NCBI GenBank assembly: GCA_963765125.1
Contig: CAVXUZ010000005.1
Coordinates: forward strand, 177,816-241,815
Origin: an uncultured candidate division WWE3 bacterium
Lineage (GTDB): Bacteria; Patescibacteriota; WWE3; UBA101185; UBA10185
DNA: 64,000 nt
Reading direction: 5' to 3'
The notes beneath the pieces were generated by a model, which was not told the origin of the DNA, made no database searches, and saw only the letters and a list, made by a program, of their open reading frames with translations. A program made the position numbers and the translations under genes. Below, one piece after another: positions 1,763 to 55,427 of the stretch. The first letter of the stretch is position 1. Each line of letters starts with the position of its first letter.

Positions 1763-4700
1763 TTATAAATTAGGTGTAACAGTAAAATAAACAATATCTG
1801 TATATTCTCCCGCTATTGTGTTTGGGGACATCGTTGCTTTAAATAACAACGTTGCAGTTTCGTCTGCAACTCCTACAGTATTTGAAAAAATAGGATTTGT
1901 TGAGATTTCTAATCCACCTACAGTATTTCCACTTACATTATATTTTGAGTCAACCACAGCTGTAGCAGAACTTGCCTGGACACCGTAGCCTTCTACACCT
2001 GGTGTTAAAACCATGTCAGCTGACATAATTGTGCTACCAGAGCCGTTAAATAATCCACCAACATAACCATTGCCATCATCATTTATATAAACTTGGTATC
2101 CTGTATACCCGTTGGTATTAACTGCTACGTTCATAGTGGTAGTTTGAGAGATACTATTAATATTTAAGGTGCCCAATGTTAGAGATGCTTTTGAAACTGA
2201 CATGTTTACATAGGGTACAGTAGTAGTAGACGCATTAGATTCAGGGCTATACTCTGTCTCAGTAAAATCCCCTTGCAGTGCCTTTACTCTCGCTTTGTAT
2301 GTACTTTTTGGCATTAAATCAAGAATATAAGAGCCCGAACTTCCTCCCCACGAATCATAAGTTCTATAATCTTCTATTCCCAAAGTGTCTCCTACAGTAC
2401 CGTCGTTTTGTACATACTGATAAGAGCTGAAGTCGTTTGATGATACTTTGACTGCATATAAAGTGTCCGTAGGATTGCCCGCAGTGCTCAACGTTATGGT
2501 TAACCTACTATAAGAATTATCTGAATTTATTAAAGCCGGCGCATACGGTGTGTTAACTTCAATTCTTGAGTTATATCCAATCTTAGTTCTGAAACTAGCA
2601 GAGTCGTCAATTCCTGCAAACGGGTTTATTTCACCAAGTATGCCAAAGTTTGTACTAGACCCAGAGGCTGAGCCTGCAGAAAGAGCGTCACCTCTTATTC
2701 TAAAACTGGGGCTGTACATTTCATCTGACGTAAACTCTTGCTCATCCTCCCAACTACCGTAGGCGGGTTCGTTGTTAGTGTAACTCCTAATCCAAATTGC
2801 GTCATAGTTTGAATACGTTGTTGAGTAGGTAAAAACACCTGTTCTTCCGGTACTGTATGTGGTTTCACTTGATCTTGTTGTTGTACTTGTGGGTGTACCT
2901 GTATAAACAGCTGACTCGGTGTATAGTTCCGAGATAAGTGAATTACTATTTGCTCTATATAAATTAACCAGATACCAAGTATCTAAAGAAACTAAATAAG
3001 ATCCATTAGTAATAAGAGTGTATGAAGTGTCAACTCTAATTTGTGGAGAAACAGCGCCTCTACCATCTAATGTTGCCTGGTATCCGCTGTTTGCGGACGA
3101 CGCACCGGCTGTATGCAACCCTGGACCAAGTGTATCTACATCGATTGCGCCAGACTCAATACGAAGCCACCCCTCTTGAACATAGTTGTCAACGCTAAAA
3201 TTATTAACGTCCTGCATCTGAATTCTATAATCATTAGACGCATGATTTACGTCACCACAGCCGCTACCTTCTTTACACGAATTGGTACTAGTAGAAAATG
3301 TAATTCCCGAAGCACCCGCAGTATCAAAAAGAATGTTACTATCATCAAAATCCTCAAAATGATCAAACGTAGCAGAGCCATTGGATGTCGTTGATGCTGA
3401 GGAATTACCATAATAAATTAGAATACCAGCACCCCCTGATAAAGGAATAGAATCAATCTCAACATAAAAAACAGCCTTGTCACTATCAATTTTTTGTATA
3501 AGGTAATAGTCGAGCTCAACTCCATCGAGACTTGTAAATCTAATATCTCCAAAATCAGTTTTGCATTTGGAATCTAGGTATACATTCATGCCACTGTCAG
3601 TTCCACTGCCGTAATTTACAACTATCTTTTTTTCGTAGTTTAATAGTGTCCCGTCTACTGATGACTCAATATTTAATGGTTTTCTATATTGCCAAGAGCT
3701 ATTAAGCCAACCAGTAATCTCAATAATTGGCGCAACCTCTTCCTCTAAGCTCCAAAAGCCAAAAGTGGGTTCATCTTCTGTACGATTTCTAATCCATATT
3801 GCATCAAAATTTGAATATGCTGTTGAATATGCAAACACACCGTGTCTACCTGTATTGCGCGTGGTTTCACTTGAACGTACCGTTGTAGTTGTTGGTGTAT
3901 TCGTATATGCTGCTCCTTCAGTAAACAACTCAGACTTAATGTCACTACCATTATCCCTATAAAGGTTAATAAGATACCAGGTGTTCAATGCTATTTGATA
4001 CGCGCCATTCGTTCTCCCAGTATTGCTAGTATCTTCTCTTATTTGTGGTGATTCTGCACTCCTATAGTCTATTATTGCCTGGTAACCGTTCAGTGAAGAA
4101 GCTGCGCCTGCCATGTGCAAACCAGGTCCGAATTGATCGTTACCTGTAGCACCAGATTCAATCCTTAACCATCCCTCTTCAATATACTCGTCGACATCAA
4201 AATCTGTAGTGTTTTGCATTTGTGTTCTATACGCCATAGATGGATTATTTACATCACCGCACCCACCCCCTTCCTTACATGAAGTAGTACTTGCAACAAA
4301 AGTTACACCAGCAGATCCAGCTGTGTCGAAAAGCCAGCTACTGTCATCAAAGTCCTCAAAGTGATCAAAGGTAGCAGATCCGTTTGATGTAGTTGATGCA
4401 GCGACATTGCCATAATATATATATACGTCGGTTCCTCCAGAGGCTGGAATTGAATTAATTTCTACAAAAAAAGTTGCTTTATCACTATCAGTTTTTTGTA
4501 ATAGGTAATAGTCTAGTTCTGTTCCATTTTCTGTGGCAAACCTAATATCTCCAAAATCTATATTACTTTTTGAGTTTAAATACACGTCCATGTCGCTGTC
4601 AGTACCAGCACCATAATTTACAGTTATTTTTTTTTCGTAATTTGTTAACACACCATCCGCAGAAGAATTAATATGTATTGATTTTCTGTACTGCCAAGCG

Positions 4701-9132: not shown

Positions 9133-10041
9133 CTATATGTACCTATATAACTTATTCACAATAATCAAGCCATAGTGCTTAGTACCTGCGCAAACGACCG
9201 GTGTTTGATGATTCCAGTCGTAAGTGCCTGCTCGTTTGTTGTAAGACGCCCAGATATTCACACAGAATGGTTTATCAACTTTATATGGATTAATAACAAA
9301 CCCACCTGCGCCGGAGATCAACTTATATGCTGCTCCGAGCTCATGGTGTTTTTGAGACAAACTAATCTGAGCATTGACTGAGCCGTCTGACACACACGCC
9401 ATTTCGTATGCAGCCGATCCGGGATTTCGTAAATATCCTTTTTCCATTCCAAACGCGTTCATAACTGCTGATCTTGTTTGAGGATAGTACATGTCTGCAA
9501 CGATGATTTGCGATCCTAAATTGACTAAATCTTCTTTTGCAGTAATTGCATACTCCTGTTTACTATCCAGTGTTCTAGCGACTCTTGTTCTACGGTTTTT
9601 ATCAGCAACCCAATTAGCGCCAGTTCTGTAATCCATAACACCCGCGGCAAGAATATCATTAAAAAAGATATCATCTCCAGCAGTTACTAGGGCAATTGTA
9701 ATTGCAACTGAATATGGAAATCCATCTGTGGCTTTTGCTTTTTCAAAATCAAGGGAAGCATCAAGAGGATCAATTGCAACAAGTACAAATTTACTATTTG
9801 CAGTATTGCAGTGATATTCAGGATCAAGTCCCTCAATAATTGTTGCACCACACCATTTTAATGAAGAAAAGTACTCTAAATAAAGTTCACCAAGAATACG
9901 GTCTGCTTTAATTTCACGATCATTGTGAAGATCGCCTGAAGCAACACCTTTCTTAATGACGTTCCTTCCTTCATCATTTTTTAATTCGCGTATTTTGCTG
10001 TATCCCAGCCGGAAAGCTTGTTGTAAAGCTTCTGTATACAT
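9133..10041 (-). CDS. inositol monophosphatase / FBPase (FIG) superfamily phosphatase
   Basis: DLHNDREIKADRIL (the DLVTxxDRxxE-like metal-binding motif), VLVAIDPLDASLDF (DPxDGT-like), GSAAYEMACVSDG and HELGAAYKLISGAGG (WDxAAG/EAGG-like region) in canonical order. The coding DNA is visibly GC-richer than its flanks. Confidence 0.55.
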   Translation of the reverse strand: MYTEALQQAFRLGYSKIRELKNDEGRNVIKKGVASGDLHNDREIKADRILGELYLEYFSSLKWCGATIIEGLDPEYHCNTANSKFVLVAIDPLDASLDFEKAKATDGFPYSVAITIALVTAGDDIFFNDILAAGVMDYRTGANWVADKNRRTRVARTLDSKQEYAITAKEDLVNLGSQIIVADMYYPQTRSAVMNAFGMEKGYLRNPGSAAYEMACVSDGSVNAQISLSQKHHELGAAYKLISGAGGFVINPYKVDKPFCVNIWASYNKRAGTYDWNHQTPVVCAGTKHYGLIIVNKLYRYI

Positions 10042-10082
10042 GATTTCGTCTCCTTATATGCGTATTTGTGTGAGATTATACC

Positions 10083-10118
10083 ACAAAAAATGAGCACCCC
10101 CTGCCAGGGTGCTCATCT
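10083..10118 (-). terminator. rho-independent terminator of the two-component/Spy-like operon
   Basis: Perfect 9-10-bp stem atgagcacc/ggtgctcat with a 9-nt loop, followed by a U-run on the minus strand (aaaaaa on the plus strand at 10085-10090). Confidence 0.5.
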
Positions 10119-10144
10119 TAAGCCTGCCAAGACTTGTTCTGCTG

Positions 10145-10594
10145 TTAGAATCCTTTCGGACCCATACCGTTTAAATCTCCCCTTCCGTTACCCATTCCTC
10201 TTGGTGCACCCATGATGTTTCTTAGGTCAAGGTTTTCAGAATCTGCCCAATTCTGCATTTCTTCTCTAATTGATGTCATTTCGTCTCTTTTTTCTTGTAT
10301 ACGATTGTGATACTCAAGGATTTTTGTTTTTTGATCTTCTGTTATGCTCCCCTCGGTAGCAGCCTTGTTTAATCTTTCGTTAAACGTGTTTTGCATCTCT
10401 TGCTGTCTTTCAGCTCTTAGTTCGGTAAAAGTTGTGTTTACATCTTCTTTCTTGATGTTAAATTTTGTCATCAATCTATTTACGAATGGTGAGAAAATAT
10501 TATCTTCCTCAGCGTAAACTGACTTTGTACCAACTAGCGATACTGTGAGAACTAGAGCAGCGAGTGAGCCTAGTATAATTGTTGTTTTTTTCAT
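10145..10594 (-). CDS. secreted Spy/CpxP/ZraP-like periplasmic protein (putative envelope-stress chaperone or TCS accessory)
   Basis: Signal peptide, charged helical coiled-coil-like body (TFTELRAERQQEMQNTFNERL...) and a Gly-rich C-terminus (GMGNGRGDLNGMGPKGF). Last gene of the RR-HK operon, as cpxP/zraP-type genes are arranged. Confidence 0.35.
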   Translation of the reverse strand: MKKTTIILGSLAALVLTVSLVGTKSVYAEEDNIFSPFVNRLMTKFNIKKEDVNTTFTELRAERQQEMQNTFNERLNKAATEGSITEDQKTKILEYHNRIQEKRDEMTSIREEMQNWADSENLDLRNIMGAPRGMGNGRGDLNGMGPKGF

Positions 10595-12602: not shown

Positions 12603-13514
12603 ATGAGCGGCTATAATGATGACAGAAACAGTGCTTGGTTTAAAGCAAAGGGTCCGGCAATGCCGAGAGTTATTCAGTCACTTAGGGATCTACCAATTCC
12701 CCTGTTAAGAAAACTCGAGGATATTCGAATTAGTTCTGAATTAAAACAAAACTTTGCACCTGGGTATGTCCTTCGGCTTGGTGGAATGATCGAGCACCTA
12801 TTTGGTGTCAGCCAGGTGATGACGATGTGGAAGAAAAACGCTGATGAAAGCTATTCTCCATTCAGTCCTCAGCTAGTAACCAGCATTCCTCCAGCGCAGG
12901 CAATATTTTCGGTTGTCGACATTGAGACCGATCCAAAGATTATCTTTCTGAAAAAGGCAAGAGATCTCTGCCTGCAAGAAGAGTATGCCATGGTTTTTTG
13001 GAATGAGGGGTTAACACCCGAGCCAATGGCTGTTAAAGATTACATGGGAAGTGTCCACCCAGAGTTTCCAAGGGGCGCTCTTGCAGACGGTGTAGGTTTT
13101 AAAACTACCCCAGAAGCTGAACAGGAACTTGGATTAAAAACGAAATACTTTATCCGAATTCCAGGCGCAAATCCAGACCCCGGACAGATGATGTCACCTA
13201 TCCCTTACAGGATAGCTTTCATGAGTGCTGAAAAAGAGGCGCTGGATGTTGACGGCGAAGCCGATATGATCAAGGGTTTGTTAGTAGTAAAACCGGAAGC
13301 GTTGTTCAAACAATTGGACACGTATGACGGAATTACACAAAGCCAGGTCTTCGCTTCTATTAGGTACATTGTGTATGAGTTTAATAAAGACACAGAGGTA
13401 CTTGATGGCCAGGGTAACAAGATTGAACTATCTGATGAAGAAATTATGAAAATTCGCATGGTTTTCATCAGGATCCTGCAAGGCCCGCTTGACGATTTAA
13501 AAGCGGATTGTTAG
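12603..13514 (+). CDS. hypothetical protein (no recognised family), compositionally atypical (GC-richer)
   Basis: 303-aa ORF with a strong SD (aaaaggagagaaataATG). The coding DNA looks ~10 points higher in GC than neighbouring genes. No motif match. Confidence 0.5.
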   Translation: MSGYNDDRNSAWFKAKGPAMPRVIQSLRDLPIPLLRKLEDIRISSELKQNFAPGYVLRLGGMIEHLFGVSQVMTMWKKNADESYSPFSPQLVTSIPPAQAIFSVVDIETDPKIIFLKKARDLCLQEEYAMVFWNEGLTPEPMAVKDYMGSVHPEFPRGALADGVGFKTTPEAEQELGLKTKYFIRIPGANPDPGQMMSPIPYRIAFMSAEKEALDVDGEADMIKGLLVVKPEALFKQLDTYDGITQSQVFASIRYIVYEFNKDTEVLDGQGNKIELSDEEIMKIRMVFIRILQGPLDDLKADC

Positions 13515-13525
13515 GAAATAGCTAT

Positions 13526-13565
13526 AAACTCCCTATAAACAAAAAGTTTAAGGGAGTTTTTTTTG
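13526..13565 (+). terminator. rho-independent terminator
   Basis: aaactccct / agggagttt 9-bp stem followed by T7. Confidence 0.5.
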
Positions 13566-13629
13566 CTTAAAAACATGTCTAAAGTTATAATGAACATTGT
13601 TGTCGTAAGTATTTAGATTAAGGAGAATA

Positions 13630-14766
13630 ATGCCAAGTAAACTAAAAAAGATATATAAAGGTAGAAAAGTACTAGTAACAGGACATACAGGTTTTAAAGG
13701 AACTTGGCTAACTGTTTGGTTAACAAAACTTGGCGCCGATGTTGCAGGTTTTAGTTTAGACGAATTACCAACAGAACCTTCTAATTACGCGCTTTCTCAC
13801 GTTGCAGATAAGATTAAAGACTACAGAGGCGACATAAGAAATTTTAAAGATATTGACGCAGTTATTAAAAAACACAAACCAGAAATTATATTTCACTTAG
13901 CAGCACAGCCGATTTTATTAAAATCCTACGATGACCCTAAAACTACATTTGATACAAATGCAGGTGGTACTGTTAATGTTCTAGAAGCAGTAAGACAAAA
14001 CGAATGTGTTAAAGCATTAGTCAGCATTACAACAGACAAAGTATATAAAAATAAAGAATGGGTATGGGGATACAGAGAGACTGACCAGCTAGGCGATACT
14101 GATCCATACGCTGCAAGTAAAGCTATGGCAGAGCACGCAATAGAATCTTATAGATATTCATTTTTTAGAGATCAGGGTTTAGGAGATAGACGAGTTGCAG
14201 TCGCAGCTACTAGAGCAGGTAATGTTATTGGGGGTGGTGATTTTGCTGATTTTAGAATTATTCCAGATTGTATTAGAGCCTTATTAAACGGTAGTCCAAT
14301 AGAAATACGAAACCCAGAAAGCGTACGCCCATGGCAATTAGTACTCGAGCCGTTAAGCGGTTATCTTTGGGTGGGCGCAAAACTTCTAGAAGATCCACAG
14401 GGTGGTTATGACCGACCTTGGAACTTTGGACCATTAAGCACTCACGGAGTGAAGGTAAGAGATGTAGCCGATTTAATGGTAAAACTTTGGGAAAATGGTA
14501 AATGGGTTGATGTGAGTAAAGAAAATGCACCAAAAGAGTCTAAGCTTCTAATGTTAGATTGGTCGGCAGCGCATAACTATCTAAAATGGCGTCCTGTTTA
14601 CAATTATCAAGAGACAATGGAAGAAGTTGTAACTTGGTTTAAGGAATACGCAAAGCAAAAAGAAGCTAATGAAGACAAAATCGATATGTTTGACGTAACA
14701 AGCGCCCATATAGATAAATATGTGAAAAGAGCAAAAGAGCTTGATATTGAGTGGGCTGTAGATTAA
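13630..14766 (+). CDS. rfbG: CDP-glucose 4,6-dehydratase
   Basis: VLVTGHTGFKGTWL is the hallmark RfbG N-terminal Rossmann motif. YxxxK (YAASKAM). The length of 378 aa fits. Confidence 0.85.
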   Translation: MPSKLKKIYKGRKVLVTGHTGFKGTWLTVWLTKLGADVAGFSLDELPTEPSNYALSHVADKIKDYRGDIRNFKDIDAVIKKHKPEIIFHLAAQPILLKSYDDPKTTFDTNAGGTVNVLEAVRQNECVKALVSITTDKVYKNKEWVWGYRETDQLGDTDPYAASKAMAEHAIESYRYSFFRDQGLGDRRVAVAATRAGNVIGGGDFADFRIIPDCIRALLNGSPIEIRNPESVRPWQLVLEPLSGYLWVGAKLLEDPQGGYDRPWNFGPLSTHGVKVRDVADLMVKLWENGKWVDVSKENAPKESKLLMLDWSAAHNYLKWRPVYNYQETMEEVVTWFKEYAKQKEANEDKIDMFDVTSAHIDKYVKRAKELDIEWAVD

Positions 14767-52475: not shown

Positions 52476-53090
52476 TTATTTTGTTGGCATCCACCCGCAG
52501 GAAATTTTATTCTCTGCTGAATATATAATACACATTGCAGACTTAAATCTATAGTCCTCATCTTTTGGGGCAATATATCCAATCCCACCTCTGCCATCCT
52601 TGCTCACGTAATTAAAATCACCCAGCTCATTCACCCAACCATCATTCTCAAAAAACTTTTCAATCTTCTTCTTGCTCTCATAACTTATACGTATAGTTTT
52701 TGCATTTGAAAGTGTTAGTGTTGCATCTTGCGCTGTCCATAATGTTTGTTCTTGCGTTATTGCAAGATCGCTTAATCCTGCAACTTCTGCAAAAGTGATC
52801 ATCAGACTATCTGTTGTGTCTGGTTTAGCTGTCTCAACAATATTTTCATCTTCTTTTACTGAAATTGTAAAAACAGCAATCGCTAATCCTATTAAAACAA
52901 CAAATAGAAATATTATCATTTTTAGAGAAAGCAACTTAAACAAAATATTTCTTTTGTTGTCTTTTTTTGTTTCGTCGTAAATATTGGTCATAAATACAAC
53001 ATCTTCTTTTTGCTTATGCTTATTTTGATAAATTTTAATAAATTCGATATTTTGTGAAATTAATTTCTTAATATATGTGATTAATTCCAT
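52476..53090 (-). CDS. hypothetical membrane-anchored protein
   Basis: 204 aa with one TM after a basic N-terminus. Confidence 0.4.
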   Translation of the reverse strand: MELITYIKKLISQNIEFIKIYQNKHKQKEDVVFMTNIYDETKKDNKRNILFKLLSLKMIIFLFVVLIGLAIAVFTISVKEDENIVETAKPDTTDSLMITFAEVAGLSDLAITQEQTLWTAQDATLTLSNAKTIRISYESKKKIEKFFENDGWVNELGDFNYVSKDGRGGIGYIAPKDEDYRFKSAMCIIYSAENKISCGWMPTK

Positions 53091-53732
53091 ACATTATTTA
53101 TATCATATTGTGTAAAAGCTTCTTTTGAGAAAGTGGCAAATTAAAAACAGCCGCGTTGTTAATACTTGCGACTGTTTAAGTAATTTGTGGAAAGCAAAAT
53201 ACCTTATTCGTAGGCTCAAACGGTATAGGAATATACTTTAAACCCTTTCCTTTTCTTACTGTTGTAGCAATTTTACAGTATTTTTGTACAATTTATAAAA
53301 GTAGGATTTATACGTACATATGCCATTTTTCAACAAAAAATGATTTGACCCCAGATTATTCTATTTCTCTGAGGTCTATAGTTTATAAGAATTCTTTTTA
53401 ACTGGTTACTGTTCTTATTTGTTTAAATAACATCATACTGAGTTTTTAATGCATACCTCTTCGCTCGCCAGTGACGCCAAAATGGTAGCCCAAAAAAGAG
53501 CTTTGCATCCTTTAACGTGCTATACAAAAATCCGTCAGTACCAACATAACCTTTATATCTACCACAGTCTTGTAAAACAGATACACTCTTTTTGTTAACT
53601 ATTAAATCAATCACATACACGTACCCACGCATTGTTACTGCCTCCTTCTCAGAATTGGTTTAAGATCAGGCGTTAAATATAATTGCTGGAATTATATGCA
53701 GTTTTACCATACGAGTCAAACGCTACAGGATA

Positions 53733-53748
53733 TTGGGGTGGCTGACCG
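53733..53748. repeat. 16-nt direct repeat of the tRNA-His 3' end (att-like)
   Basis: ttggggtggctgaccg occurs identically at 53733-53748 and again at 53900-53915, where it is the tRNA-His 3' end. Confidence 0.6.
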
Positions 53749-53850
53749 AACTCGGTCACGTGTCTTTTGTCTGTAGCTCACTTTGGTGCACAACATACAA
53801 AAGCACTCGACCCCGCCTCCTTCGCTTCGCTCAGTCCGGCATTCGATCCC

Positions 53851-53900
53851 TGTAAACACAAAGAAAGCTGTCATCCACCTTCGGTGAATACCAGCTTTCT
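53851..53900 (-). terminator. rho-independent terminator immediately after tRNA-His
   Basis: agaaagctg / cagctttct 9-bp stem. On the minus strand it is followed by TTTGTGTTT. Confidence 0.45.
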
Positions 53901-53976
53901 TGGGGTGGCTGACCGGGCTCGAACCGGCGACATCCTCTTCCACAGAGAGGCGCTCTACCACTGAACTACAGCCACC
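53901..53976 (-). tRNA. tRNA-His (anticodon GUG) with genome-encoded G-1
   Basis: Reverse complement G|GTGGCTGTAGTTCAGTGGTAGAGCG CCTCT CTGTGGA AGAGG...GGTTCGAGCCCGG TCAGCCAC C CCA. There is an extra 5' G opposite discriminator C73. Confidence 0.8.
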
Positions 53977-54005
53977 GCGCACAATTACAGGGGAATTATA
54001 ACATT

Positions 54006-55427
54006 TTAATTAGTCTTTACGTGTTTCCAGTTTATAAAGTCTAAAAATCTATCGCCGGTGGTAAAGGTGTATTTATCACCAACCCCCTCTATATATTTTG
54101 AGATGTAATGCTTACTGAATGGGTGATACAAAAATATAGCAGGTGTCGTTTCAACTACTACTTTTTGAAATTCGTTGTAGTGTGTAACCCTCTTTGCCTG
54201 ATCAGGCTCATTTCGACCCTCTTCTAACGCCCTGTCTGCACGAACTTGCTCAAATCCGCTTAAATTAAGCCCTGGAGCATCTTTTTGTGTTGAATGCCAA
54301 TTTATATACCTATCCGGATCTCTATCAACTTCTTGCCCGTAAAACAATATTTCAAAATTTCTAGGGTTTATTGCCTCGTCAACGATTTTGTCTGATGCTA
54401 TTTCGATAGTTTTAACCTCTAAACCAAATTTGTCTTCCCAAATATGCGCGATATTCTCTGCCATTTTTTTATGTGCTTTAATATCAGGAACTGTGATTCT
54501 TAATGTCAAATCTTTATAATCAGCGCTTATATCGGCAGAGCCATCAAAATCGATGGACTTATCGGTAAATGAACTTCGACTAATGGGTCCTTGAACTCTG
54601 ATGCCTTTTTCGTAAATTAGTTGATCGATGTCTAGAGCTGCTAAAAGGTTATCTCTAAGTTTAACGTCTTGATACTTTTCATCGCGTAAATTAAAAAATA
54701 GCGCATAGTAAACACCTTGCAGAGGTAAGTTAAACTTTTCAAAATTGTCTATTGAATATTCTTGGTCTGACACAAATCCATCAATCTCACCTAATTTTGC
54801 TGCTGTAAGAATCTCGTTTTCATTTGCGTAACATCTGAAACTTAAACGTCTTATATCAAGTTCTGGTTTTTCGTGAACTAGAACAATCTGTTTAATTACT
54901 GGGCCACTTCTTTCAACGCGTGCCACCTTAAACGGTCCGCTACTGATTGGATTTAATTGATCCATTTTTTCTTCTGACTCATCCGGCATAACGCCGACTG
55001 TTAAAAGATTTAGAAAGGGAGAGTATTTGTTTGGTAATGTATAACGTACTGTTAAATCGTCAACTCGATCTGTTGCCACACCCGCAAGATTACTAACCTT
55101 ATAAGAGGTATAAATTAAATCGTCTGCGTTAATTTGTTTTCCGTTTGACCAATACTGCTTATCTTTTAGTTTTATTGTGTAAACAAGACCATCCTCTGAA
55201 ATACTCCAAGTTTCGGCGAGATCAGGTATTAAAGTACCGTATATGTCATATTCGAACAATCCTCTGTAGATCATTCTTGAAATAGTGTTATCGATTTTAT
55301 TTACGGTTTGGCTGGGTAAAAATGAGTTTGGCTGGCCGACAACGCCCTCTGTGTAATCATTGACCGTTGGCGATATTCCTAACCAAAATGTGTTTATGAC
55401 AAAAATTATATGTGTTAAGAAATTCAC
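54006..55427 (-). CDS. ABC-type solute-binding protein, family 5 (peptide/nickel SBP), membrane-anchored
   Basis: 473 aa. N-terminal TM, then SBP_bac_5-like domain order. No cognate permease or ATPase genes adjacent. Confidence 0.55.
   Translation of the reverse strand: MNFLTHIIFVINTFWLGISPTVNDYTEGVVGQPNSFLPSQTVNKIDNTISRMIYRGLFEYDIYGTLIPDLAETWSISEDGLVYTIKLKDKQYWSNGKQINADDLIYTSYKVSNLAGVATDRVDDLTVRYTLPNKYSPFLNLLTVGVMPDESEEKMDQLNPISSGPFKVARVERSGPVIKQIVLVHEKPELDIRRLSFRCYANENEILTAAKLGEIDGFVSDQEYSIDNFEKFNLPLQGVYYALFFNLRDEKYQDVKLRDNLLAALDIDQLIYEKGIRVQGPISRSSFTDKSIDFDGSADISADYKDLTLRITVPDIKAHKKMAENIAHIWEDKFGLEVKTIEIASDKIVDEAINPRNFEILFYGQEVDRDPDRYINWHSTQKDAPGLNLSGFEQVRADRALEEGRNEPDQAKRVTHYNEFQKVVVETTPAIFLYHPFSKHYISKYIEGVGDKYTFTTGDRFLDFINWKHVKTN

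Follow-up and report, generated by a model that had tools for sequence, protein, structure and literature searches.

A structured, protein-less element on the 3' side of the tRNA-His gene in a WWE3 bacterium belongs to a widespread family that carries copies of neighbouring tRNA 3' ends

The window analysed in this study, that is the whole 64-kb stretch of DNA from a member of the candidate division WWE3 (Patescibacteria), has a G+C content of 35%. Ten tRNA genes are located in it (positions 6952-56791), and the element described below was found only at the gene of tRNA-His. This gene was recognized by both ARAGORN and Rfam (Table 1), its CCA is gene-encoded (53901-53903) and the G at position 53976 of the minus strand provides the G-1 residue facing C73, exactly as the original prediction had read it. 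Genes for SBP_bac_5 (hereafter SBP), a glycosyltransferase, TyrRS and hypothetical proteins surround the locus; among named homologues, those of WWE3 match the SBP protein best. The glycosyltransferase gene separates tRNA-Glu from the SBP gene in the window, and is missing in locus L015. Two hypothetical genes on the minus strand, both without a Pfam match, lie between the element and tyrS: an ORF of 69 codons (53423-53632), served by a promoter with an 11/12 sigma-70 match and by a Shine-Dalgarno sequence, and a gene for a 204-aa product with an N-terminal membrane anchor (52476-53090). Both are absent from the 3' side of tRNA-His in the closest relatives. Two spurious ORFs span tRNA-His together with the element, one of 88 aa on the minus strand (53716-53982) and one of 65 aa on the plus strand (53767-53964), and gene callers might list them among hypothetical proteins.

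Downstream of the tRNA-His gene its own 3' end recurs. The 16-mer TTGGGGTGGCTGACCG, composed of the terminal part of the tRNA and one additional nucleotide, has exactly two sites in the 64-kb window, one at the 3' border of the gene (53900-53915) and the other at the distal end of the insert (53733-53748), so that the exact recurrence noticed earlier is real; its chance expectation is 0.01, and two matches were obtained in none of 100 shuffled sequences. The repeat can be extended to 22 nt with 20/22 identical positions, covering C56-A76 plus one base. Over C56-A76 proper the identity is 19/21, and the downstream copy has TT (UU) instead of CC at positions 60-61. A terminator hairpin had also been proposed behind the gene, and a terminator-like hairpin followed by a T-rich run was indeed observed there, even if a simple terminator scan of the window did not list it. 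The insert between the repeats measures 167 bp and contains no ORFs. It had earlier been described as some 150 bp of non-coding DNA, but the segment is not anonymous: its G+C content is approximately 53% versus 35% for the genome, and it matches a conserved structured element.

Table 1. Features at the tRNA-His gene and in the segment behind it (positions in the window)
Feature	Positions	Strand	Evidence or remark
tRNA-His(GTG)	53901-53976	-	ARAGORN and Rfam (53901-53975, tRNA, 62.5 bits), plus G-1 at 53976
Repeat copy A, tRNA-His C56-A76	53901-53921	-	
Gap between tRNA-His and the element	53854-53900	-	terminator-like hairpin AGAAAGCUG..CAGCUUUCU (~53861-53900, MFE), then T-rich UUUGUGUUU
Structured element	53729-53856	-	covariance model R1: 64.8 bits, E = 1e-17; nhmmer E = 1.6e-34
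P1 5' strand CAGGGAUC	53845-53852	-	pairs with tRNA-copy positions 57-64
Junction J1/2, GAAU	53841-53844	-	family consensus GAAA
P2	53815-53840	-	GCC/GGC base, tandem G.A pairs, inner hairpin CUGAGC-GAA-GCGAAG
P3, long hairpin	53754-53812	-	base GGUCG x UGACC, G.U pair near-invariant in the family
Repeat copy B, copy of tRNA-His C56-A76	53734-53754	-	19/21 identical
Exact 16-nt repeat, tRNA-His positions 62-76 plus 1	53733-53748	-	
Promoter TTGACT-17-TATAAT, then Shine-Dalgarno	53691-53719	-	11/12 sigma-70 match; outside the element, context of the right-hand boundary

Exact-protein look-ups with the genes of the window gave no match, which means that strain-level relatives are absent; the closest SBP homologue is 69% identical, and by this protein the closest relative is L017 (GTDB contig CAYSWS010000008.1; 68% identity). 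Using alignment of SBP homologues, 75 syntenic loci were obtained from GTDB species genomes. The gene order tRNA-Glu(-) / SBP(+) / tRNA-His(+) is kept across WWE3, and in several genomes among the 75 loci the 3' end of the resident tRNA-His likewise recurs downstream of the gene. The spacers of L028 and L033 are homologous to that of the window: a hairpin is followed by GGGAUCGAAUGCCGGA...GAGGCGGGGUCG, a variable hairpin, GUGAC and a tRNA copy that starts from C56. Of some 52 WWE3 tRNA-His loci, only about 3 have the element. In the SBP tree its three carriers (the window, L028 and L033) fall into three clades, their nearest relatives being devoid of it. A conserved flank, aatt.aGGTTGT..CAACA..ATACCCC..AATCGAACC, adjoins the CCA of the tRNA-His gene itself in L024 and L036; in L028 this flank adjoins the CCA of the tail. 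Judged by these flanks, the former two are precise empty sites and the latter is an occupied one, so both variants of the locus that the original prediction proposed to look for, with and without the segment, were found in relatives.

Other kinds of tRNA-derived repeats were registered in the same set. Within L017 (5101-10598) six cassettes of 0.5-1.5 kb stand one after another behind the tRNA-His gene, mostly with one ORF on the tRNA strand (one encodes a HIT-family protein), and each cassette ends in a repeat of about 30 nt, ttGGTTCAAATTCTcaTCAATCAGCCACCCCA, which combines a T-arm-like hairpin with the last 13 nt of tRNA-His. The three-way-junction core is absent from this array, which appears to be integron-like or a product of tandem accretion, and probably represents a separate phenomenon at the same tRNA. 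L070 (11521-12060) carries a one-ORF cassette of 526 bp that ends in a 13-nt copy of tRNA-His and is followed by the conserved flank of empty sites; L076 (4151-4210) has a 15-nt copy of its own tRNA-His 3' end just 42 nt downstream, and in L024 a 12-nt copy is located at 13878, 2.3 kb downstream of the gene.

The profile made of the three tRNA-His spacers revealed an element directly behind tRNA-Glu in L031, with a tail that is a 27-nt copy of tRNA-Glu, and one further copy in L056. JGI metagenome contigs were then scanned with the core pattern GAAWGYCGGA-N(8-32)-GAGGCGGGGT, which gave at least 120 loci, with 118 genuine copies among the matches listed. Covariance model R1, described below, yielded at least 121 matches from 100 sources, to which the remaining loci added 15, so that the search for the segment elsewhere, also suggested at the outset, ended with a family of at least about 135 copies in public data. 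The G+C content of carrier contigs varies from 31% to 65%. One of them, L188 (64% G+C), encodes an AlaRS that is 75% identical to Elusimicrobia proteins, hence the family occurs in Patescibacteria and Elusimicrobiota at least, with a core, GAAAGCCGGA / GAGGCGGGGUCG / GUGACC, that hardly differs between these phyla.

Copies of the element are obligatorily tied to tRNA and tmRNA genes, on their 3' side. Among the matches listed, 92 of the 118 copies have a tRNA gene on the same strand that ends less than 200 nt upstream, these neighbours cover at least 19 isotypes, with a median spacing of 54 nt between the end of the tRNA and P1; copies lacking an upstream tRNA are mostly situated at contig ends, are second tandem units or stand behind tmRNA. 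The linkage to tmRNA (ssrA) was found in L137 (3400-3945) and L165 (8219-8774). The order of the unit is in every case tRNA, usually a terminator-like hairpin, an optional P0 hairpin, the P1/P2/P3 junction, invariant GUGAC and the copy of the neighbour tRNA beginning from C56. Folding of the gaps in 90 copies placed a terminator-like hairpin straight after the tRNA in most of them; some copies are located between tRNAs of one cluster and have no terminator. P0, a 9-bp hairpin just 5' of P1, is present in many copies (for instance L126:190-237, L098:1020-1045 and L191). Frequently it contains AACUGCUU as a conserved region of the loop and closes with GCGU. Several peculiar copies may be mentioned here. 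The 20 nt preceding GAAAGCC in L137 match the tmRNA 3' end perfectly in reverse complement. Four copies (L106:9931-10033, L111:533-635, L137:3839-3945 and L152:3354-3462) group as a sub-family in which a small additional hairpin, GAAAGCG-uacu-CGC, stands between GUGACC and the 3' strand of P1, and their tails are out of register with the upstream tRNA. In L108 the element at 3956-4060 has no recognisable upstream tRNA, and a group I intron is located at 9925-10175 of the minus strand (Rfam, 67.9 bits).

Among the matches listed, tails of 87 copies were compared with the neighbour tRNA from C56 up to its end. Identity is complete (100%) in 45 of 87 and nearly so in 53 of 87, and several additional tails differ from the tRNA by a 1-nt indel alone. 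The left boundary of the tRNA copy falls at 55|56 without exception in the copies examined. The right one is diffuse: identity past the tRNA end fades gradually, being about 0.5 versus 0.3 in controls at +4 to +10, and in several copies the duplication reaches up to approximately 12 nt beyond the tRNA end. Five loci (L094, L096, L098, L101 and L206) have the whole unit duplicated in tandem. About 11 copies among the matches listed have kept only positions 57-64, the acceptor part of the tail being gone. Descent of the tail from mature tRNA by retro-copying was considered as well. Its marker would be CCA in tails whose neighbour genes lack it, and such tails have CCA in 6 cases and are without it in about 22, so this comparison gave no sign of retro-copying. 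Within a group of copies sharing the same tRNA, Arg-CCG, identity is 0.71-0.90 in the gap and 0.65-0.81 in the core (19-35% divergence), and similarity of the downstream flank is practically at the random level, yet the 18-nt tail has not changed and is 100% identical to the tRNA.

Twelve copies of equal length were aligned without gaps as a seed, a three-way junction was assigned, and covariance model R1 was built on this basis. In the family consensus 7 nt located 5' of GAAA pair with positions 57-63/64 of the tRNA copy forming P1; then follow J1/2 (GAAA), P2 with its GCC/GGC base, tandem G.A and variable hairpin, J2/3 (GG), and P3, in which GGUCG faces UGACC and a variable hairpin comes next, the last C of this helix being C56 of the tRNA copy. 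In the 121-sequence alignment, which was itself fitted to model R1, standard pairs occupy 92.0% of cells versus 68.1% after shuffling, changes on both sides (compensatory) are present in 28 of 31 pairs, and the covariation score is 0.523 compared with 0.147 for shuffled alignments (0 of 500 reach 0.523) and about 0.07 for slid controls. One pair is G.U in 114 of 120 sequences, and at another position GC and GU are distributed as 52:42. Because of these G.U pairs the fold is limited to the sense strand of the tRNA, and such strand specificity points to RNA and, less likely, to single-stranded DNA. The pairing in P1 is significant at positions 57-64 (position 59 is paired at 0.84 versus 0.41 in the control) and no pairing was registered past position 64, which leaves the acceptor 3' strand, the discriminator base and CCA as an unpaired tail. 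The 5' strand of P1 is specific to the element and its 3' strand is made of tRNA-copy positions 57-64, so that the helix covaries with each neighbour tRNA. The element is conserved, structured and strand-specific, and the direct repeat is built into its structure.

Folding and an Rfam search had been recommended for the spacer, and a conserved three-way-junction fold was obtained, but no family of Rfam 15 matches the element either in the window (53000-54100, E up to 10) or at other loci. All Rfam matches in the regions searched are tRNA, tmRNA and one group I intron elsewhere, none of them on the element, and known self-cleaving ribozyme classes present in Rfam also do not match it. The tRNA-like 3' end suggested tmRNA, split or permuted tRNA and known ribozymes as candidates; neither ARAGORN nor Rfam found any of them.

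Model R1 has a single match in the 64-kb window, and it is the segment behind tRNA-His. Five of the six pairs expected for positions 57-62 form in its P1 (C-G, U-A, an A.G mismatch, G.U, G.U and G-C); this helix was mapped by the default cmsearch alignment and by hand, and cmsearch with filters off misplaces it. Base C53754, the last one of P3, is C56 of the tRNA copy, positions 57-64 of repeat copy B supply the 3' strand of P1, and positions 65-76 (acceptor 3' strand, C73 and CCA) make up the unpaired tail. With one mismatch and two wobble pairs in P1, and a tail identical at 19 of 21 positions, this copy is slightly degenerate. It is also a mosaic. Its P1 5' strand and P2 are like those of the tRNA-His copy of L028, and from P3 through GUGAC-CGAGUUC it nearly coincides with L171, the copy elsewhere that resembles it most, after which the tail of L171 differs. 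The exact 16-nt repeat starts where the stretch shared with L171 stops, at tRNA position 62, and for this reason 16 nt rather than 21 were originally seen. Such composition indicates an exchange between copies, with a junction inside the T-arm.

Clustering of neighbour proteins around approximately 105 element loci revealed no family present at more than 6 loci and none that is enriched, and TnpA- or TnpB-like genes were not found among the neighbours. Tyrosine recombinases were sought by regex plus jackhmmer, which is a weak test: none was detected in the window, in agreement with the initial remark that no integrase gene is nearby, and none in 74 of the 75 related loci. The only such gene belongs to L077, where a Phage_integrase protein (Pfam E = 9e-11) is encoded at 13252-14370 of the minus strand, 1.7 kb downstream of tRNA-His; no repeat of the tRNA 3' end of 11 nt or longer occurs in the 10 kb examined there. 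Viral contigs contained 14 matches to the 16-mer, of which 13 were chance occurrences in high-G+C DNA and one was a phage tRNA-His, no matches to a 21-mer of the spacer, one chance match to the core pattern and 32 matches to a looser pattern. Only one of the latter, L216, is real, and there the element resides in the bacterial flank next to cysE and galE. A phage-borne attP is rejected on the basis of these viral scans.

Presence/absence polymorphism with precise boundaries, related cores standing at different tRNAs and the lack of any linked protein characterize the family. We assume with a probability of roughly 0.55 that the segment from the end of tRNA-His to position 53733 is one copy of a family of protein-less, non-autonomous insertion elements of about 150-200 bp, which target the T-loop and reside on the 3' side of tRNA and tmRNA genes. 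Under this assumption the element would enter a tRNA gene at the T-loop, at the junction U55|C56, and the incoming unit, consisting of a tRNA 3' end, a terminator and the RNA core, would restore an intact and terminated tRNA gene. The old 3' end, pushed downstream, would become the 3' strand of P1 and the tail of the element RNA, which itself may arise by read-through or by co-transcription with the tRNA. As the RNA has one segment complementary to positions 57-64 of the tRNA gene and a second one that repeats positions 56-76, the target would be selected by pairing with that gene (or with the tRNA itself), and the chemistry would be performed by a conserved factor encoded elsewhere, such as a recombinase, nuclease or ligase. 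A bolder version, to which we would give only tentative credence, sees here a new class of protein-less mobile element consisting solely of an RNA that directs its own insertion to one site, the T-loop, in genes of tRNA and tmRNA. The 5' strand of P1 and the tail would read the two target strands, the reaction would fall to a conserved host or helper enzyme encoded elsewhere or else to the RNA, and a change of these two short segments would retarget the element to new tRNAs.

Several observations restrain the insertion reading. No excised, circular or phage-borne form turned up, the viral scans giving nothing but chance matches and one host flank. The terminator-like hairpin that separates tRNA-His from the element leaves transcription of the latter hypothetical. 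The tail has remained 100% identical to the tRNA despite 19-35% divergence of the core, hence a selected function of the tail fits at least as well as a passive scar. The 5' strand of P1 needs to be matched anew to each new tRNA, which speaks for long residence rather than frequent hopping. The patchy distribution could also have been obtained by repeated precise loss between direct repeats.

The main alternative is that the element is a resident functional small RNA, linked to tRNA and not mobile, for which an exact copy of the neighbour's 3' 21 nt is a functional requirement and not a scar. Such an RNA might serve as a decoy or competitor for a factor reading the T-arm and acceptor end, or as a partner pairing with the 5' part of the tRNA, and the family would have spread long ago by duplication and then been held by selection. 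Near invariance of the core across two phyla and strong purifying selection on the structure are in line with this explanation, as are the Arg-CCG tails preserved between diverged cores and randomised flanks, and the two substitutions in the P1 region of the window copy, both of which are C-to-U and keep G.U pairing. Copies inside tRNA clusters without a terminator, which are probably co-transcribed with their neighbours, fit it too. However, the truncated copies have retained the core and P1 without the acceptor part of the tail, and near-identical P3 segments are joined to different tails. The presence of the element at so many isotypes and at tmRNA, yet at so few tRNA-His loci of WWE3 and in separate clades, demands either movement or very many losses. 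Duplications that run past the tRNA end and tandem whole units are, moreover, events at the DNA level. On balance we consider a resident RNA rather unlikely.

The original prediction pointed out that such repeats are a classic attL/attR footprint of tyrosine-integrase insertion. Carried further, this would mean that a tyrosine-integrase island once entered the T-loop of tRNA-His and has been deleted almost entirely, and the conserved part would be an attP arm with sites for integrase, Xis or IHF. Part of this idea stands, since the repeat does mark an insertion, as follows from the comparison of L024 and L036 with L028, and does start in the T-loop. Its extent from the T-loop to the tRNA 3' end and its fuzzy right boundary resemble those left by T-loop-targeting integrases; sublocations of integrases were reportedly described by Williams in 2002. 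The use of tmRNA genes and the Phage_integrase gene of L077 could be adduced as well. But the insert is an intact member of a family and not a shrunken island: more than 100 independent copies are equally short and free of integrase, and no protein family accompanies more than a handful of them. Strand-specific covariation with G.U pairs and tandem G.A is unexpected for double-stranded arms that bind proteins, the core of the element is conserved across phyla better than neighbour proteins, and the phage contigs scanned did not contain it. We regard such an integrase remnant as improbable. Two observations had initially been named together as speaking against integration, namely a lack of empty sites and membership of the repeat in a conserved structured RNA; relatives do have empty sites, but the repeat also belongs to such an RNA, so that the outcome is divided.

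One can also imagine a relic of a single-strand DNA transposon, a PATE/REP-like derivative of IS200/IS605 served in trans by a Y1/HUH transposase, with the fold formed by DNA and GGUU|C as the target. The strand-specific fold agrees with this, the left junction is fixed after the conserved tetranucleotide GGTT|C, the right end ..GTGAC is conserved, and the folded strand, which is the tRNA sense strand, would be the lagging-strand template for co-oriented genes. Elements of the IS200/IS605 type, however, make no target duplication, whereas 18-30 nt are duplicated here; the three-way junction, tandem sheared G.A and the conserved G.U pair are typical of RNA, and the neighbourhood offers no gene of TnpA or TnpB type. 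We regard this possibility as very improbable. A local accident, i.e. replication slippage or a chance repeat, has in its favour only that the window holds two copies, both short, and is practically negligible given the low chance expectation and the same architecture seen more than 100 times at other tRNAs. All three, the shrunken integrase island, the single-strand DNA relic and chance, fit the data poorly.

Among known systems, mobile elements with tyrosine integrases crossing over in the T-loop of tRNA or tmRNA genes, such as mycobacteriophage Ms6 (PMC1762012) and ssrA islands of Dehalococcoides (PMC3146451), are similar in many respects. Like them, the family is placed at the 3' part of tRNA/tmRNA genes, has a direct repeat from the T-loop to a few bases past the 3' end, leaves the gene intact, forms tandem arrays and has precise empty sites in relatives. 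Those elements, however, are kilobases long and encode an integrase, whereas members of this family span about 150-200 bp, code for no protein and consist of a conserved RNA fold, in which the repeat supplies one strand of the closing helix. CIME-type and other att-flanked remnants share with it att-like repeats and the absence of a recombinase, which implies mobilization in trans, but CIMEs are lineage-specific deletion products without conserved structure, while this family crosses phyla, covaries and is found at at least 19 isotypes.

Comparison with RNA-guided and RNA-based systems is equally instructive. Bridge or seek RNAs of IS110/IS1111 and omega RNAs of IS200/IS605 (TnpB, IscB) also join a scaffold to segments matching the flanks, and the complementarity of the P1 5' strand to the top strand together with the identity of the tail recalls the two-strand recognition of bridge RNAs. 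Yet bridge and omega RNAs are situated beside the gene of their own recombinase or nuclease and produce no 20-nt duplication, while no such gene was found near the element copies, and there is no sequence or Rfam similarity. Group I introns known at position 35/36 of Patescibacteria tRNA genes (PMC13011429) are likewise RNA-based, reside in tRNA genes of the same phylum and have their target set by pairing with the flanking tRNA. They are, in contrast, at least 200 nt long, break the gene at the anticodon loop and are removed by splicing, whereas here the upstream tRNA gene is complete and the element has no match to Rfam Intron_gpI. HDV-like theta ribozymes downstream of phage tRNAs (PMC10879173) are also small structured RNAs just after tRNA genes. 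[quoted passage not shown] No prior description of it was found in the open-access literature, and it may be described elsewhere; it appears to be a new, widespread and so far undescribed class of tRNA-linked structured elements.

For annotation, the practical consequence is that short repeats of tRNA 3' ends enclosing seemingly nothing should not be dismissed as dead att sites, and that covariance model R1 can already be used to label elements which now cause spurious ORF calls, such as the 88-aa frame mentioned above. The combination of a scaffold with one complementary and one identical segment follows the logic of a programmable guide RNA, so that the partner enzyme could be of interest for biotechnology. 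If confirmed, the family would represent a new widespread class of structured RNA in the Candidate Phyla Radiation and Elusimicrobiota, and a new way to occupy tRNA genes, these hot spots of genome plasticity, without an integrase.
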